From assembly GCA_900754445.1 (NCBI GenBank), contig CAAECW010000107.1, positions 14,643 through 78,642 of the forward strand: DNA of 64,000 bases. The letters are read 5' to 3'. This stretch comes from an uncultured Collinsella sp. (GTDB taxonomy: Bacteria > Actinomycetota > Coriobacteriia > Coriobacteriales > Coriobacteriaceae). The position numbers and the translations under genes are program-made. The notes below the pieces were generated by a model. It was not told the origin of the DNA and ran no database searches. It saw only the letters and a list, made by a program, of their open reading frames with translations. Below are positions 8,036-47,972 of the stretch, piece after piece (position 1 is the stretch's first letter; every line of letters starts with the position of its first letter).

Positions 8036-8110
8036 GCCAGTGTGGCGCAACGGTAGCGCAACTGATTTGTAATCAGTGGGTTGCAGGTTCGATTCCTGTC
8101 ACTGGCTCCA
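8036..8110 (+). tRNA. tRNA-Thr (anticodon TGT)
   Basis: Manual cloverleaf fold: acceptor GCCAGTG/CACTGGC, D-arm GCGC-AACGGTA-GCGC, anticodon loop TTTGTAA, T-loop TTCGATT, and an encoded CCA. Confidence 0.85.
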
Positions 8111-8116
8111 TGAGAG

Positions 8117-8156
8117 TTTCGGGCTCTGTTCCTTGTGGGACAGGGCCCGTTTCTAT
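8117..8156 (+). terminator. Terminator-like hairpin plus T-rich tract after tRNA-Thr
   Basis: GGGCTCTGTTCC...GGGACAGGGCCC hairpin followed by GTTTCTATTT. Confidence 0.4.
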
Positions 8157-8203
8157 TTATGTCGACATGTAAGTGGGTTTGACTCCCACCAAGCTTCAGG
8201 TTT

Positions 8204-8420
8204 GTCTCGATCTGTAACACGGGTGGGCTGAAAACCCTCCTTATAGTTACAGATCGAGACAATGCCAAAGGACGGCCGATAACGTCTCGATCTGTAACAC
8301 GAAGAGGCTGAAAACCGTTCTAGCTGTTACAGAGTGAGACGTAAGCCGGGGTCGCCGCGTAGTATCTCGATCTGTAACAGATAGGAGAGGAATGACCCTC
8401 TTACTGTTACAGATTGAGAT
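8204..8420 (+). repeat. Array of three 57-nt long-hairpin repeats at an exact 80-bp period (units 8204-8260, 8284-8340, 8364-8420)
   Basis: Each unit is TCTCGATCTGTAACA-N27-TGTTACAGATCGAGA. The 15-bp outer stem is conserved. The inner 27 nt differ between units but each still forms its own inner stem. Units 1 and 2 share the apical loop CTGAAAA. Confidence 0.8.
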
Positions 8421-8663
8421 GAAAACGGTGAGGCCCCTGGTCTACTTGATTGCACCGGGGAAGCTCCGATCTCGACCTATATATAGGTGCAAATAGGCTG
8501 TTATCGAAGCTCGATCCTGAAGGTGTACTCTACTACACCAAAGTGTTACCTTGGGAAACGTCACCTCAGTATCCAAAACCACCGTCCCTCATATCCCAAC
8601 TCAACAAAACAGCAGGTCAAAGGTATATAGATACGCCCGGGGCCGTGTATCTAGAGGTTTTCG

Positions 8664-8693
8664 TTGACAGCCCCCAAGGTTGCATCGTATTAT
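8664..8693 (+). promoter_or_regulatory. Strong sigma70-type promoter for the tRNA-Tyr/Thr/Met-tuf transcription unit
   Basis: Consensus TTGACA, an 18-nt spacer, then TATTAT, about 60 nt upstream of tRNA-Tyr. It follows an AT-rich low-GC stretch (8440-8660) that contains the ACCTATATATAGGT palindrome. Confidence 0.6.
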
Positions 8694-8755
8694 CTTCTTC
8701 GTTCGCGGGGGCGGCGGTCCAAAAGACCAAAGAACCTGCGGATACTTGAACGATT

Positions 8756-8839
8756 GGGAGTTTGCCCGAGTGGTTAATGGGGACGGGCTGTAAACCCGTT
8801 GGCTCTGCCTACATAGGTTCGAATCCTATAGCTCCCACC
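8756..8839 (+). tRNA. tRNA-Tyr (anticodon GTA), long variable arm
   Basis: Anticodon loop CTGTAAA, long variable arm, T-loop TTCGAAT, acceptor GGGAGTT/AGCTCCC. Confidence 0.8.
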
Positions 8840-8847
8840 CGTCAAGT

Positions 8848-8923
8848 GCCTGTATAGCTCAGTCGGTAGAGCACTTCGTTGGTAACGAAGAGGTCACCAG
8901 TTCAAGTCTGGTTGCAGGCTCCA
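8848..8923 (+). tRNA. tRNA-Thr (anticodon GGT)
   Basis: GCCTGTATAGCTCAGTCGGTAGAGC...; anticodon loop TTGGTAA; T-loop TTCAAGT; CCA encoded. Confidence 0.85.
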
Positions 8924-8926
8924 TCC

Positions 8927-9003
8927 GGCGGTGTAGCTCAGTTGGTTAGAGCACACGGTTCATACCCGTGGCGTCACTGGTTCGAATCCAGTCACCGCTA
9001 CCA
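8927..9003 (+). tRNA. tRNA-Met (anticodon CAT; elongator or lysidine-modified Ile2 type, not initiator)
   Basis: GGCGGTGTAGCTCAGTTGGTTAGAGC...; anticodon loop TTCATAC. The G1-based acceptor stem and the anticodon stem argue against an initiator. Confidence 0.8.
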
Positions 9004-9099
9004 TAGGTAACACGGTGGCTTCTCAATAGTATGTTGAGAGGCCACTATGGTATAAAGGCAAAGTCCCGTCCGGGGACGACCTGTTAAGAGGAGGGCTTT

Positions 9100-10290
9100 A
9101 TGGCCAAAGAGAAGTTTGAGCGCACTAAGCCGCATGTTAACATCGGCACCATTGGTCACGTCGACCACGGCAAGACCACGCTGACCGCTGCCATCACCAA
9201 GGTTCTCTCCGAGACCGAGGGCTGCAAGGCTGACTTCACTGCGTTCGAGAACATCGACAAGGCTCCCGAGGAGCGCGAGCGCGGCATTACGATCTCCGTC
9301 TCCCACGTCGAGTACGAGACCGCTTCCCGTCACTACGCTCACGTTGACTGCCCGGGCCACGCTGACTACGTCAAGAACATGATCTCCGGCGCTGCTCAGA
9401 TGGACGGCGCTATCCTGGTCATCGCCGCTACCGACGGCCCCATGGCTCAGACCCGCGAGCACATCCTGCTCGCCCGTCAGGTCGGCGTTCCCTACATCGT
9501 CGTCTTCCTGAACAAGTGCGACATGGTCGACGATGACGAGCTCATCGACCTCGTCGAGATGGAGACCCGTGAGCTCCTCTCCGAGTACGATTTCCCCGGC
9601 GACGACATCCCCGTCATCCGTGGTTCCGCTCTGGGCGCTCTCGAGGGCGACGCCAAGTGGATGGACGCTATCCGCGAGCTCATGAATGCCGTCGACGAGT
9701 ACATCCCGACGCCTGCTCGTAACAACGACCTCCCGTTCCTGATGGCCGTTGAGGACGTTATGACCATCTCCGGCCGTGGCACCGTTGCTACCGGCCGTGT
9801 CGAGCGCGGTGAGCTCAAGCTCAACGAGCCCGTCGAGATCGTCGGCATCAAGGATACCCAGAACACCGTCGTTACCGGTATCGAGATGTTCCGTAAGTCC
9901 ATGGACTTCTGCGAGGCTGGCGACAACGTCGGTCTGCTGCTCCGCGGCATCAAGCGCGAGGACATCGAGCGCGGCCAGGTTCTCTGCAAGCCCGGTTCGG
10001 TTACCCCGCACACCAAGTTCACCGGCGAGATCTACGTTCTGACCAAGGAGGAGGGCGGCCGTCACACCCCGTTCTTCGATGGTTATCGTCCTCAGTTCTA
10101 CTTCCGTACCACCGACGTTACCGGTACGGTCAAGCTCCCCGAGGGCACCGAGATGGCTATGCCTGGTGACCACATCACCATCGAGGGCGACCTCATCCAC
10201 CCGATCGCCATGGAGGAGGGCCTGCGCTTCGCTATCCGCGAGGGTGGCCACACCGTCGGTTCGGGCATCGTCTCCACGATCATTGAGTAA
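9100..10290 (+). CDS. tuf: Elongation factor Tu
   Basis: 396 aa, [32 protein letters not shown]. Confidence 0.97.
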
Positions 10291-10316
10291 ATTAGCTCTT
10301 TGATATAGCTGACTTA

Positions 10317-10355
10317 GAGAACCCGGCACTTATATGGGTGCCGGGTTCTTTTCTG
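10317..10355 (+). terminator. Rho-independent terminator after tuf
   Basis: GAACCCGGCAC-ttatatgg-GTGCCGGGTTC followed by TTTTC. Confidence 0.8.
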
Positions 10356-10492
10356 CAATGGATATTGAGCCGTTGCTGGTGTCGAGAGGATCGATATTGG
10401 TCCTGGATGCACCGTCGATTAGCTCTCGATGGCTTCATTGATGTGTTCCAAATATGAATGGATCCACCGAGAACCAATTGACTCGAGGTTTT

Positions 10493-10527
10493 CATTGACA
10501 GCACTTACGTGGAGCTGATAAAGTAAC
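10493..10527 (+). promoter_or_regulatory. Candidate promoter for rpmG-tRNA-Trp-secE-nusG
   Basis: TTGACA, an 18-nt spacer, then TAAAGT, upstream of rpmG. Confidence 0.35.
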
Positions 10528-10569
10528 AACTCGTGCCCGTACGGGGCGGAAATGAAAGGTTCAGGATAC

Positions 10570-10719
10570 ATGCGTACTCTAGTTACTCTTGCGTGCACTG
10601 AGTGCAAGCGCCGCAACTATACGACCACCAAGAACAAGTCGACCATGCCTGATCGTATGGAGATCAAGAAGTATTGCCCCTGGTGCCGTCATCACACGCT
10701 GCACAAAGAGACTCGCTAG
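10570..10719 (+). CDS. rpmG: 50S ribosomal protein L33
   Basis: The 49-aa protein [49 protein letters not shown] is missing from the ORF track because it is under 60 aa. Confidence 0.9.
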
Positions 10720-10732
10720 TCTCTAGTCACAT

Positions 10733-10808
10733 ACGCCAGTAGTTCAATTGGTAGAGCATCGGTCTCCAAAACCGAGTGTTGAGGGTTCGAGTCCTTCCTG
10801 GCGTGCCA
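10733..10808 (+). tRNA. tRNA-Trp (anticodon CCA)
   Basis: ACGCCAGTAGTTCAATTGGTAGAGC...; anticodon loop CTCCAAA. Its position between rpmG and secE is conserved. Confidence 0.85.
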
Positions 10809-19022: not shown

Positions 19023-19058
19023 AAAACCTACCAAAATAAACCTGTCCCTTTTTGGCAG
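19023..19058 (+). repeat. Solo copy of the ~35-bp repeat AAAACCTACCAAAATAAACCTGTCCCTTTTTGGC (other copies at 45783-45818 and 47567-47602)
   Basis: About 31/35 identity to the other two copies. It lies in the 3' region of the ABC operon next to a GC-rich terminator hairpin at 18969-19012. Confidence 0.6.
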
Positions 19059-34590: not shown

Positions 34591-34652
34591 CCCTCAGGGA
34601 TGCAACACATCAGCCCACCGACTTAAGGCTTATGAGTGGGGGCGTCGGCCAA

Positions 34653-34852
34653 CGGGAAACCGGGCTGCCCCAAAGTCACCGCAGGCCGCGCCGCCGAAGG
34701 CCAGGCGCAAGGTTTTCGTAGATTCCGCACGAGCCGAAGAGCACTTAATGTGCTCTTCGTGCGAGCCCAGGACCTGACCGAGCGAAAACCTTGCGCCTGG
34801 CCTTCGGCGGCGCGGCCGGATGGTGGAATTGTGTGCAGCCCGGTTTTCCGTT
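34653..34852. repeat. Structured repeat element copy 1: nested long inverted repeats around the conserved core TTCCGCACGAGCCGAAGAGCAC-TTAAT-GTGCTCTTCGTGCGAGCCCAGGAC
   Basis: Outer 15-bp arms GGGAAACCGGGCTGC/GCAGCCCGGTTTTCC and perfect 35-bp middle arms (34688-34722 and 34788-34822). The central hairpin CGAAGAGCAC-TTAAT-GTGCTCTTCG is part of the core. A second copy is at 47627-47766. Confidence 0.75.
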
Positions 34853-34859
34853 GACCGAC

Positions 34860-35095
34860 GCCGGGGTCCCCGCCATAATACTTTCGGTTCACGCACGAAT
34901 CCGCTGCCAGAGACAGCCGGCGCAAACGGGTCTTACCCGCGAGCTTAATGGGACTTCCCGCCAGCCGAGGTGGTCGAGTAGATATGTCTTCTCGCCCCCG
35001 TCGCTCATGCAGCGCGGGGGCTTTCTTTTTGGACATGCCCCCGTCACGTCCTTGTGGCGGACCGTGCCCGGAAAGAATTCGAGGAGGTGTAATTC
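34860..35095 (+). promoter_or_regulatory. rplJ 5' leader (likely the L10(L12)4 autoregulatory leader and promoter region)
   Basis: A GC-rich untranslated region of about 235 nt lies directly upstream of rplJ. Its position matches the ribosomal-protein L10 leader found in many bacteria. Confidence 0.35.
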
Positions 35096-45584: not shown

Positions 45585-45590
45585 CTAGTT

Positions 45591-45700
45591 CCGCCGTTCT
45601 AACGAACGGCGGCGACCTCCGTCGCTGCGCGGCCCCCAGAGCTACAATCTGTCATTCAAAAGGCAGGGCATGACCAAAAGGTCAATGCCCTGCCTTTTTC
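45591..45700 (+). terminator. Tandem terminator hairpins after rpoC (45591-45612; 45657-45700 with a T5 run), flanked by the 14-bp inverted repeat GCGGCCCCCAGAGC/GCTCTGGGGGCCGC (45629-45642 / 45715-45728)
   Basis: CCGCCGTTC-taac-GAACGGCGG, then AAGGCAGGGCAT...ATGCCCTGCCTTTTTC. Confidence 0.75.
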
Positions 45701-45782
45701 ATGCCACCTTGTACGCTCTGGGGGCCGCTCGCTTGCGTATGCTCAACCTGTTGCGTTCCGCTGATTCCTTGGGGATTTGCCA

Positions 45783-45818
45783 ATAAGGGACAGGTTTATT
45801 TTGGTAGGTTTTTCCTGC
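45783..45818 (-). repeat. Left ~35-bp inverted repeat bracketing the sigma/anti-sigma cassette (GCCAATAAGGGACAGGTTTATTTTGGTAGGTTTTT)
   Basis: It is the reverse complement of the repeat at 47567-47602 (about 31/35 identity) and of the copy at 19023-19058. Confidence 0.6.
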
Positions 45819-45902
45819 TTGAATTTGAAACATTTCGCCCGACAAGAGCGTATCTAAGGTGAGGGCCTCACCAAGAATTATTAACGTCACCGGGAGGTGA
45901 TT

Positions 45903-46421
45903 ATGGAAGAACAAGCATTTAGACAGGCGGTCGAAGACCACCGGGATGTCGTGTTTCGGATCGCGTTGACGTACCTGCGTGATCGCGCCGACGCCGACGA
46001 TGTCGCTCAAGACGTCTTTCTGAAGTTACTCAAAAACGATGCGCAATTTGAAAGCTGGGAACATCTTCGTCGATGGCTTATCCGGGTCACGATCAATGAA
46101 TGCAAATCGCTCTTTCGAAAGCCATGGAGGCGTGTGGAGGATATTGAGAACCTGGCCGATTCGCTTTCGGCGGCGCAGGATGAGACCAAGGCGGTCTTGT
46201 CAGACGTTATGCGACTTCCGGAGCGATTCCGCGTTCCCATCGTGCTCTATTACTATCTGGGCTTTTCGACCTCAGAGATTGCCGAGTTGTTGCATGTACC
46301 AGCCGCGACCGTTCGAACGCGTTTAGCCCGTGGTCGATCGAAGCTCAAATTCATCCTAGAGGAGGGCGACCGTGAAATCCAATCAAATCAAGCAGGCCTT
46401 CGAGTCCATCCAAGCCGATAG
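45903..46421 (+). CDS. ECF (group IV) RNA polymerase sigma factor
   Basis: Region 2 (DVAQDVFLKLLKN) and region 4 HTH (LGFSTSEIAELLHVPAATVRTRLARGRSKL). I chose the start at ATG 45903, which sits 5 nt from GGGAGG. A GAAAC-N17-CGTAT motif lies upstream at about 45833-45862. Confidence 0.85.
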   Translation: MEEQAFRQAVEDHRDVVFRIALTYLRDRADADDVAQDVFLKLLKNDAQFESWEHLRRWLIRVTINECKSLFRKPWRRVEDIENLADSLSAAQDETKAVLSDVMRLPERFRVPIVLYYYLGFSTSEIAELLHVPAATVRTRLARGRSKLKFILEEGDREIQSNQAGLRVHPSR

Positions 46422-47448
46422 CGACCTTGCAGATCGCGTCCTAAATACCGCTGCGGGTGAGCCGCTTCATCGAAAGGGCCACGCGAAGCCTCTCTATGTT
46501 GCCGTAATCGGATGTCTTGCCGGAGTTTTGGCGACTGGAGGGGTCGCCTACGCCGTTGTCAATTCCGGCTATTTTGCCTCAGCCTGGGGAAACCACGGCA
46601 ACGGGGATTCCATTACCTGGACCAACGGTGGCTCATCGGGGACTCAATATACCTACACCAGAGAGTTTGGTGACGGTATCGCGCCCCAAAGCCTGGAGGG
46701 CGCAGTCCAGAAGGTTGATCTGTCCGTCGAGGGTAATGGCTATACGCTCGATATCCATGAGATGGCTATTGACCAAAACGGCTGCGGAGCCGTGACGTTT
46801 ACGTTGTCCAATCCAAATGGCGTTAACTACTACAAGCCGGCAGCAGAGACAGGCGAACTTGTTCTCTATGGTGAAGAAGAACAAGGCATCGGCACGCCCG
46901 ATATGAAGTTCGGCGAGGAATGGCCTGACACACGCAGCACAATTGATAAGGACACATCAAGCGATACTGTCATTAATGGCACGATGTACTTTGCCGCTAT
47001 GGATCGCGAGCGAGATTTGCAACATGCGGTCACCTGGAATATCCACTGGACCGAGGGTGAAGGTGAGAGTGCGAGGCGGTTTGAGGCGTCGACACCCGAG
47101 TTCAATATTGGAGCGTACGTCGATACAAAGGAACTCCGCTCCGGTGACTCGCCTCTTGAGATTAGCCCGTTTTCCATCCAGACGCACATCGATGATTTGG
47201 GCTATGAAGCAGTTGATAATAAGCTGACCGTCAGCTACAAGGATGGATCGGAGCAGATTATCGAAGATGACGACGCAGGGGTGTTCAACTTATATTTTTC
47301 TTATGGGCGCAATAGCGGAGAGAACATCTGGGTGCCAACGAAGTTGATTGATGTCGAACAAGTGGTCTCAGTAACGCTTGAGGGCACGAGGTGCACGTCA
47401 ACAGGGGAGACCGAAACAAAAGTACCCTTTACCATCGTCTATTCGTAA
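46372..47448 (+). CDS. Putative membrane-anchored anti-sigma factor cognate to the ECF sigma
   Basis: GTG start with a GAGGAGGG RBS. It overlaps the sigma gene by 50 nt. It has a short cytoplasmic N-terminus, a single TM (LYVAVIGCLAGVLATGGVAYAVV) and a ~290-aa extracytoplasmic domain. Confidence 0.6.
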   Translation: MKSNQIKQAFESIQADSDLADRVLNTAAGEPLHRKGHAKPLYVAVIGCLAGVLATGGVAYAVVNSGYFASAWGNHGNGDSITWTNGGSSGTQYTYTREFGDGIAPQSLEGAVQKVDLSVEGNGYTLDIHEMAIDQNGCGAVTFTLSNPNGVNYYKPAAETGELVLYGEEEQGIGTPDMKFGEEWPDTRSTIDKDTSSDTVINGTMYFAAMDRERDLQHAVTWNIHWTEGEGESARRFEASTPEFNIGAYVDTKELRSGDSPLEISPFSIQTHIDDLGYEAVDNKLTVSYKDGSEQIIEDDDAGVFNLYFSYGRNSGENIWVPTKLIDVEQVVSVTLEGTRCTSTGETETKVPFTIVYS

Positions 47449-47566
47449 GGTCTGAGGCCGCTTCCTACTAGGGGAAGCGGCCTCTTTTGCGTTAAATGGA
47501 AACGCCGCCGATTTCCATGCGTCAGATGAGAGCAGATTACCTCTGGAGCGCGACGTTTCACCAGAT

Positions 47567-47602
47567 AAAACCGAACAAAATAAACCTGTCCCTTTTTGGC
47601 GG
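47567..47602 (+). repeat. Right ~35-bp inverted repeat bracketing the sigma/anti-sigma cassette (AAAACCGAACAAAATAAACCTGTCCCTTTTTGGC)
   Basis: Inverted relative to 45783-45818. Confidence 0.6.
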
Positions 47603-47626
47603 GTAGCGTTGCCCCGCCGAGCACGT

Positions 47627-47766
47627 CGGATTCCCGGCCCGGGCGGCCGGCGGCTTAAGTTTGTCGCGAGTTCCGCACGAGCCGGAGAGCACTTAATGTG
47701 CTCTCCGTGCGAGTCAGGACTGTAGAGCAGCAAACTTAACCCCCGCGCCGCCCGGTCCGGGAATCC
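47627..47766. repeat. Structured repeat element copy 2: core TTCCGCACGAGCCGGAGAGCAC-TTAAT-GTGCTCTCCGTGCGAGTCAGGAC flanked by self-complementary ~36-nt arms
   Basis: It shares the core with 34653-34852. An A:T to G:C compensatory pair change keeps the 10-bp central hairpin intact. The outer arms differ in sequence from copy 1 but still pair with each other (about 28/36). Confidence 0.75.
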
Positions 47767-47972
47767 ACCCCCGCGCACAGAAAGGGATTCCTTTTGTGTA
47801 GGCTTTGCGGAAATGTGCCAATTTTGGGATACGCCCGGCGGCGTGGTCTGTTGACGGCACAGCTAACGCCACGTATCCTATCGAACTGCGTGTTTCGTAG
47901 GGGGATGCTGACCCCTCGATTCAAGCCGTTGCACTTTACAGAAAGCTGGAATCATTCGAGAAGGAGTACGCT

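Follow-up and report, generated by a model that had tools for sequence, protein, structure and literature searches.

The 64,000-nt stretch of DNA analysed here (the window) is a region of a Collinsella genome with rplJ-rplL, rpoB-rpoC, a sigma/anti-sigma cassette and rpsL-rpsG-fusA. It contains, twice, the palindromic element that is the subject of this work, with copy 1 located upstream of rplJ and copy 2 upstream of rpsL (Table 1). Copy 2 is shown below to belong to a Collinsella-restricted family of interspersed palindromes with a fixed architecture, a family previously unannotated in that it has no Rfam model and no paper that we found describes it. An earlier note, made from the letters of the window, had framed copy 2 as a structured element associated with rpsL, which is too narrow a framing, while its account of the immediate surroundings proved accurate. 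Copy 2 does lie immediately outside the right inverted repeat of the cassette, starting 27 nt past the right arm (47562-47600) of this 39-nt repeat, and the distance to the rpsL TTG start codon (47973), given as about 200 nt, measures 206 nt. The element lies between the terminator of the anti-sigma gene and the promoter-like site of rpsL, and that terminator is the only one returned at this locus by a scan for canonical terminators, which found none at copy 1.

Copy 1 begins 50 nt past the stop codon of an aminotransferase gene, and its hairpin is the sole strong structure between this codon and the rplJ promoter. The copy does exist where the earlier note had put it, at 34653-34852, but that extent is too short, as the palindrome occupies 34641-34862. 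The -35 of the rplJ promoter-like site falls within the outermost right arm, and the left arm carries an inverted, slightly diverged version of it (CCAACGG versus CCGTTGACC). The same 505-nt spacer with copy 1 is present in 10 of 10 genomes of identical RplJ.

Table 1. Positions of the two copies, their parts and the neighbouring transcription signals in the window, followed by the retrieved loci that carry inverted doublets
Feature	Position	Strand	Basis or remark
Copy 1, 222-nt palindrome	34641-34862	+	Between aminotransferase gene and rplJ promoter; covariance-model match
Copy 1 boxes	34716-34731 and 34768-34776	+	
rplJ promoter-like site, TTGACC-17-CATAAT	34851-34879		
Canonical intrinsic terminator of anti-sigma gene	47454-47484	+	13-bp stem then TTTTG; 140 nt upstream of copy 2
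Copy 2, complete palindromic hairpin	47627-47766	+	140-nt imperfect palindrome; RNA and DNA folds; covariance-model match
Copy 2 left outer arm, locus-specific	47628-47663	+	36-nt inverted repeat, 86% complementary to 47731-47766
Copy 2 left conserved box, TCGCGAGTTCCGCACG	47664-47679	+	Family alignments; tabulation of boxes in 246 full-length copies
AGTTCCGCACG part of left box	47669-47679	+	Nearly invariant family-wide
Copy 2 variable apical hairpin, mid-stem module AGCC...TGCGAGT	47680-47714	+	RNA fold
Copy 2 apical 10-bp stem	47683-47692 / 47698-47707		Loop TTAAT, 47693-47697
Copy 2 right conserved box, CAGGACTGTAGAGCAG	47715-47730	+	Family alignments
CAGGACTG part of right box	47715-47722	+	Nearly invariant family-wide
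Copy 2 right outer arm	47731-47766	+	Outer part CCGGGAATCC remains in deletion allele L124
rpsL promoter-like site, TTGACG-17-TATCCT	47851-47879	+	Only such site for rpsL; downstream of copy 2
Inverted doublets	L004, L008, L021, L035		glycosyltransferase/DmpA
Inverted doublet	L001		pnp/rnj
Inverted doublets	L027, L095		tsaD/cstA

Anatomy and covariation of the hairpin

Copy 2 folds far more stably than shuffled versions of itself, with an RNA fold of -96.2 kcal/mol for 47620-47775 against -57.8 +/- 4.4 kcal/mol in the shuffles (z -8.8, reached by 0 of 200). As DNA, the forward strand folds at -51.7 kcal/mol (z -9.4) and the reverse strand at -58.1 kcal/mol (z -10.1). The imperfect reverse-complementary arms described in the earlier note are present, as is the core that it had found common to the two copies, which share 50 nt. 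The 40-nt core, CGCACGAGCCGrAGAGCACTTAATGTGCTCTyCGTGCGAG, matches the window exactly twice (34726-34765 and 47674-47713, both on the forward strand) and shuffled sequence not at all (0 of 100), and the copies are homologous. Internally they differ only at r/y, where copy 2 has G-C and pairing is preserved in copy 1 by A-T. A covariance model built from the family recovers copy 2 at 102.5 bits (47653-47744) and copy 1 at 87.6 bits, and the next-best matches in the window, at 23 bits or less, are the reverse strands of these same copies. The argument that stem-preserving changes make chance unlikely stands, and the hairpin is not a chance one, although two copies were an undercount, with covariation evident over about 290.

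Across the family, the outer arms are 25-100 bp long, unrelated between loci, and near-perfectly complementary within a copy (40/40, 42/42 and 54/56). Inside them lie a 5′ box, TCGCGAGTTCCGCACG, and a 3′ box, CAGGACTGT(AG/CCG)AGCAG, in which AGTTCCGCACG and CAGGACTG are almost invariant over 246 full-length copies. The boxes pair only partly with one another, creating an asymmetric internal loop, and are topped by an apical hairpin (about 34 nt) that changes in stem and loop but always with full compensation. Three discrete mid-stem modules are found (AGCC...TGCGAG, CAAA...TCTTGCG and AACA...TCGTGAG), together with at least 12 apical stems bearing the loops TTAAT, AGT, TGT, AGC or CTCT, every one of which is self-complementary. 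Conservation peaks at the centre of the element, while its termini, the outer arms, are the least conserved part and are unrelated between locus classes.

The covariation is extensive. RNAalifold reports double compensatory changes in 29 of 43 pairs, 89.6% of cells are paired on the named structure versus 67.6% in shuffles, and the covariation score is 0.527 versus 0.156 in shuffles (0 of 500), with slid controls at 0.21 or below. A reading of the internal loop as a K-turn was dropped after analysis by hand, as the canonical 3-nt bulge and tandem G·A pairs were not matched. Inspection of arms and core revealed no consistent TANNNT or -35 of a promoter within the element, and about 1 Mb of Collinsella DNA, remnants excepted, contains no further match to the arms that would suggest a use as guides.

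Copies, loci and genomic setting

When scanned in one genome per GTDB species, the exact 19-nt apex occurs at 120 loci or more, and among the matches listed nearly all titles are Collinsella or Coriobacteriaceae. The two-box pattern AGTTCCGCACG-N20-50-CAGGACTG is likewise found at no fewer than 120 loci in metagenome contigs, from human-gut assemblies. In 1.99 Mb of DNA from the retrieved loci, nhmmer identifies 287 copies and essentially no decayed ones, and the covariance model identifies 114 copies in 745 kb of apex-scan loci, compared with 2 in the 64-kb window. Clustering by flanks resolves 27-35 distinct, unrelated loci, at which all copies are intergenic and the neighbours are housekeeping genes (pcrA/manA, rplC, guaB/leuS, murB, ptsH, metK/sdaA, gyrA, tsaD/cstA, rnj/pnp, clpX/valS, def/fmt, rlmD, polA, rplJ and rpsL). 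The locus flanks hold few further copies (about 1 per 100 kb), and a density of about 1 per 50-100 kb, or some 20-40 copies per genome, is a rough estimate extrapolated from these few flank copies rather than counted. Copies range from 113 to 272 bp in length, and many contigs of metagenome-assembled genomes (MAGs) end within one.

Searches of existing resources returned no counterpart. At gathering thresholds, Rfam (release 15) yields only tRNAs in the window, five of whose genes are clustered at 8036-10805. At E<=10 both copies match only plant and animal miRNA-precursor models far below threshold, a generic effect of long hairpins. No description of the family was found in the literature on repeats or miniature inverted-repeat transposable elements (MITEs) of Collinsella and Coriobacteriaceae, and no sequence text that matches is contained in the supplement of a survey of structured RNAs in the human microbiome. 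A phage or plasmid origin was rejected, as IMG/VR contains the element on only 3 contigs, where its positions are host-like or at the edge of a prophage. In one locus (L131:8379-13294) a copy stands at the end of a prophage-like region beside endolysin-like and reverse-transcriptase genes, the latter possibly part of a diversity-generating retroelement. A contig labelled Methanobrevibacter smithii (L040, CAVHBE010000073.1) carries the Collinsella PTS/ptsH locus with its hairpin and is almost certainly misbinned.

Scored against its neighbouring genes, the element is oriented ++ in 38 cases, +- in 31, -- in 21 and -+ in 5, and divergent spacers are rare. Around 15 locus classes place it within 55 nt of a stop codon. 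No T-run follows the arms in any of 25 locus classes, so that the U-tract directly after a GC-rich hairpin, by which a canonical intrinsic terminator is recognized, is missing. Some loci carry inverted doublets with the two hairpins 120-250 bp apart (Table 1); here, the AGTTCCGCACG sides always face each other and the CAGGACTG sides point outward to the flanking genes.

Strain variation at rpsL was followed in 10 genomic places that code for an identical RpsL protein. The element is present in 8, with differing core modules; in one (L124) a deletion has left only the outer right arm, and in another (L129) the element is wholly absent. The rpsL promoter and leader are essentially identical in all 10, with or without it, and from these natural alleles alone we infer that the element would be dispensable at rpsL for both terminator and promoter. 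The ECF sigma/DUF4179 anti-sigma cassette between rpoC and rpsL (window 45897-47448) is also variable among strains. One place (L127) lacks the cassette and keeps the hairpin in a single copy, while three (L121, L123 and L130) have a second, direct copy of the roughly 200-bp hairpin-bearing unit between rpoC and the sigma gene, so that the cassette is flanked.

A different dispersed repeat, about 45-50 nt in length and with AATAAACCTGTCCCTTTTTG as its core, is present in the window at 19034-19053 (+), 47578-47597 (+) and 45780-45799 (-) and also in L001, L017, L074, L101 and L105. Its inverted copies at 45779-45817 and 47562-47600 bracket the sigma/anti-sigma cassette, and at pnp-rnj and clpX-valS the motif recurs just to the left of the hairpins. 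Upstream of rpsL, some strains have an insert that is absent from the window and resembles a MITE, about 130 bp long and ending in inverted repeats CGGAAGTATGCGGCAAAAT (L125:2390-2540 and L127:2400-2530), and the deletion in L124 spans from inside this insert to the hairpin's right arm. Downstream of rpoC, different strains have one or the other of two unrelated terminator hairpins, that at window 45585-45730 or that in L122:729-800 and L130:543-610. A motif, GGATACGCCCG, lies just 5′ of the rpsL promoter-like site (window 47826-47836) and of that of rplC (L016), and possibly serves as a control element shared by promoters of ribosomal-protein genes. Directly 5′ of rplJ, a sub-threshold match to the Rfam L10_leader (34889-35036, 31 bits against a gathering score of 44) ends in a terminator-like hairpin; it is probably a diverged L10 leader, separate from copy 1. 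In one Collinsella genome, an IS200-type element with a Y1 transposase stands right after the rplL terminator (L262:2250-2922).

Maintenance of the palindrome and competing readings

Covariation by itself does not separate maintenance of a structure as RNA from its maintenance as DNA, and the arms hold further evidence. Their mismatches bear no G·U signature (40 of G·T type and 62 of A·C type, plus many transversions), and the ratio of mismatch types shows no relation to the direction of flanking transcription. Inner arms are often perfectly complementary, and outer arms reach into neighbouring functional sequence, as at the -35 of rplJ and at the 3′ ends of pcrA and def, where a diverged inverted copy lies opposite. 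The mid-stem and apex modules are mosaic between loci, and between strains of identical RpsL, and chimeric arms occur in L086, L090 and L093. Maintenance as DNA is further favoured by the strong folds of both DNA strands, by the many MAG contigs that break within the element and by the many copies, copy 2 among them, that are placed between a terminator and the promoter that follows.

The reading that we favour as a whole, with a probability of about 0.55, is that the element is primarily a DNA-level palindromic repeat, of the kind represented by REP, ERIC and TRIT, situated at transcription-unit boundaries. As inferred from the pattern above, the arms would be kept complementary by templated repair or recombination within the palindrome rather than by selection on RNA structure, core modules would be swapped between copies by gene conversion, and now and then a whole hairpin would be duplicated into a new spacer. 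The copies would persist at transcription-unit boundaries, with the CAGGACTG side typically abutting either the stop codon of one gene or the front of the following one, and, where transcribed by read-through, the very stable hairpin may mark a 3′ end or shield the unit that follows, in the manner of a barrier. That the two boxes are so strictly invariant suggests recognition of the folded strand by a protein of the host, and on this view the element is probably protein-bound.

Several observations weigh against this reading. The element is polar, its CAGGACTG side being nearest a gene boundary in about 20 of 25 classes. In about 12 classes this boundary is the stop codon of a gene that reads towards the element, at a distance of 3-46 nt, and in about 9 it is the front of a gene that reads away from it; a DNA-level repeat leaves this polarity unexplained. 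In at least 9 tandem loci, copy 2 included, the element follows a canonical terminator and precedes the next promoter, a count from a permissive terminator scan that is to be used qualitatively; in that position it may be untranscribed, so that the barrier role would not be general. In vitro, hairpins without a U-tract did not cause mycobacterial RNA polymerase to terminate (PMC3993855), which tempers any terminator claim for the element, and were proposed instead to protect or define 3′ ends (PMC3993855). No target-site duplication was found at the flanks of 25 class representatives, nor conserved termini or a nearby transposase. In the assemblies, 4 of about 240 copies have the core in reverse orientation with the arms unchanged, which could be due to recombination or to assembler ambiguity; these are confined to the two loci with the longest arms, and, being so rare and restricted, a flip-flop of the core is not relied upon here. 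Lastly, the boxes are invariant and decayed copies were not found in 2 Mb, which points to purifying selection for a specific function that a tolerated or selfish repeat does not explain. A protein recognizing the folded strand would be the simplest idea for what is selected.

The combination of invariant unpaired or bulged boxes with freely covarying helices on either side is typical of protein-binding RNA, and it can be proposed that the family consists of small RNA genes or untranslated-region (UTR) modules whose internal loop binds a dedicated RNA-binding protein or processing enzyme. The same polarity would agree with this, as the roughly 12 classes that start shortly after a stop codon always do so from the CAGGACTG side, as would the failure to find decayed copies, and at valS, leuS and sdaA the hairpin is within about 25-90 nt of the start codon, where it could belong to a 5′ UTR. 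However, we consider a structured RNA unlikely. G·U enrichment is found on neither strand, with mismatch type unlinked to the direction of transcription, and the arms are more perfect than RNA folding requires. The strand that flanking genes would transcribe varies by locus (++ versus -- above), copy 2 and several others stand between a terminator and a promoter, the arms share no promoter-like motif, and the element matches no Rfam family.

A recombination or mobilization site active as single-stranded DNA (ssDNA) or as a cruciform is a further, quite unlikely, alternative. Here, the boxes would be read by a structure-specific enzyme (HUH/Y1, a tyrosine recombinase or similar) that copies hairpins to new spacers and mediates the gain and loss of adjacent cassettes. 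The sigma/anti-sigma cassette enclosed by direct hairpin units in three strains, and missing from the strain with one copy, is what such an enzyme might leave behind. Some copies at different loci form subfamilies whose arms are related (GGGGTTAAGTTTG arms are common to rpsL, rlmD and pnp-rnj), the core modules are mosaic between copies, and conserved boxes with a variable terminal structure recall the logic of the integron attC site. In tandem contexts, moreover, the + strand is co-oriented with essential genes in about 10 cases versus 5, which would be expected if the lagging-strand template folds. Yet no recombinase or transposase gene is associated with the element in about 2 Mb, the sole Y1 gene (L262) belonging to an ordinary IS200 with unrelated hairpins, and there are no arrays, R/L-box consensus, target-site duplications or conserved termini. 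The copies are orthologously fixed in many species (10 of 10 at rplJ), and their orientation is stable at nearly all loci, which means that mobility is rare at best, while ordinary homologous recombination can explain the duplication around the cassette.

The link to rpsL and ribosomal-protein operons that the earlier note implied did not survive. If the element were a cis-regulatory leader or operator of such operons, with a ribosomal protein or growth-rate regulator binding to it, it could be expected where it is indeed found at three loci, sense-oriented upstream of rplJ, rpsL and rplC, and many of its other neighbours are translation or nucleic-acid housekeeping genes. Nevertheless, it occurs at 27 or more unrelated loci and in both orientations, at least 24 of them not ribosomal-protein operons, and many copies face the 3′ ends of genes. 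A leader would be placed in the 5′ UTR, whereas the predicted promoters of rpsL and rplJ (Table 1) lie downstream of the hairpin, by 85 nt at copy 2, or at its edge, which would put the element outside the leader; the candidate L10 leader is a feature of its own. Furthermore, the alleles in which the element is absent or deleted (L129 and L124) retain an identical RpsL with promoter and leader essentially unchanged. On distribution, promoter position and these element-free alleles, an identity as rpsL leader or regulator was rejected; it is largely refuted and very improbable. A chance palindrome or low-complexity artefact, for which only the GC-richness of the arms speaks, is next to impossible given that no shuffle, of 100 or 200, reaches the core match or the fold energy and that hundreds of homologues covary.

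Relation to known repeats and significance

The element is an interspersed palindromic repeat in the generic sense, as multiple homologous, non-coding hairpin copies occupy intergenic positions in one lineage. In behaviour, its closest analogues are TRIT of Mycobacterium, ERIC and REP, from all of which it differs in that conservation is confined to two internal boxes and the helices on either side vary. TRIT (Tuberculosis Rho-independent terminator motif), a palindromic hairpin of mycobacterial gene ends, was likewise inferred from sequence conservation to have a binding factor (Gardner et al., 2011; PMC3152330). Both it and the Collinsella element are hairpins with conserved sequence, restricted to one actinobacterial genus, that number from tens to hundreds and gather at the ends of genes, often touching the stop codon, and, being palindromic, such hairpins appear on both strands. 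TRIT is short, however, and conserved over the entire hairpin, whereas the Collinsella element conserves its two boxes and varies in apex and 25-100-bp arms, with many copies preceding promoters rather than placed at 3′ ends. For neither has a function been demonstrated.

The REP/BIME/REPIN sequences of enterobacteria and pseudomonads are extragenic palindromes at operon boundaries, present in either orientation, often as inverted doublets, and known to break assemblies. All of these traits are shared by the Collinsella element. However, a REP unit measures 20-40 nt, is conserved throughout, carries the tetranucleotide GTAG, is present in hundreds of copies and is mobilized by RAYT (Y1) transposases, in contrast to the 113-272 bp, unconserved arms and estimated 20-40 copies per genome found here. 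No RAYT gene was seen near copies in about 2 Mb of loci, where the only Y1_Tnp gene (L262) belongs to an IS200 with its own, different hairpins. Proposed roles of REP include protection of mRNA 3′ ends and the binding of DNA-structural proteins (partly discussed in PMC3993855). The Collinsella element is also comparable to ERIC in size, conserved centre, low copy number and orthologous positions, but ERIC can be aligned along its full length, while in Collinsella the arms of different loci show no relationship and covary. ERIC (or IRU), of about 127 bp, is an imperfect palindrome with a conserved centre that is found in low copy number at orthologous positions in related species, and we know of no transposase for it and of no agreed function.

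Other classes agree with the element in fewer respects. MITEs, such as the Correia element of Neisseria, are also intergenic, hairpin-forming repeats of 100-150 bp, and can affect neighbouring transcription, but their conserved terminal inverted repeats, their target-site duplications and their parent insertion sequence have no counterpart in the Collinsella element, whose termini are unrelated between classes and at whose 25 representative flanks no direct repeat was evident. The integron attC site, which is recognized by structure rather than by sequence, resembles it in its design of conserved boxes with extrahelical bases and a variable terminal stem-loop, and the cassette of some strains does lie between two copies. 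In attC, however, the R′′/R′ boxes (RYYYAAC/GTTRRRY) are at the base of the hairpin without outer pairing, in arrays next to intI, while in the Collinsella element AGTTCCGCACG and CAGGACTG sit inside long arms, that consensus is lacking, and copies are single or in inverted doublets. Invertons are not a match either, as the inverted cores number only 4 among about 240 copies, the arms are unconserved and the core contains no promoter-like hexamers.

It can be further hypothesized, as a speculative and rather doubtful extension, that the boxes in the asymmetric loop are the docking site of a Collinsella protein acting on a folded single strand, be it ssDNA at the fork or RNA. If this is true, the family would represent a new structure-specified site and not a passive repeat, used, for example, in hairpin-directed recombination or mobilization carrying cassettes like the sigma/anti-sigma pair, or by a dedicated RNA 3′-end factor.

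Collinsella is an abundant human gut commensal in which this family lacks annotation. The element breaks MAG assemblies, and it marks unit boundaries beside rplJ, rpsL, rplC, gyrA, pcrA, polA, pnp and tRNA synthetase genes. With its identification, a tempting but wrong annotation as an rpsL leader or regulator is removed. In essence, its design is the reverse of that of a MITE, with invariant internal boxes and an apex and arms that vary with full compensation. This makes the family a clean natural case for telling the maintenance of a palindrome at the DNA level from selection on RNA structure, and gives a handle for finding a structure-specific binding protein.

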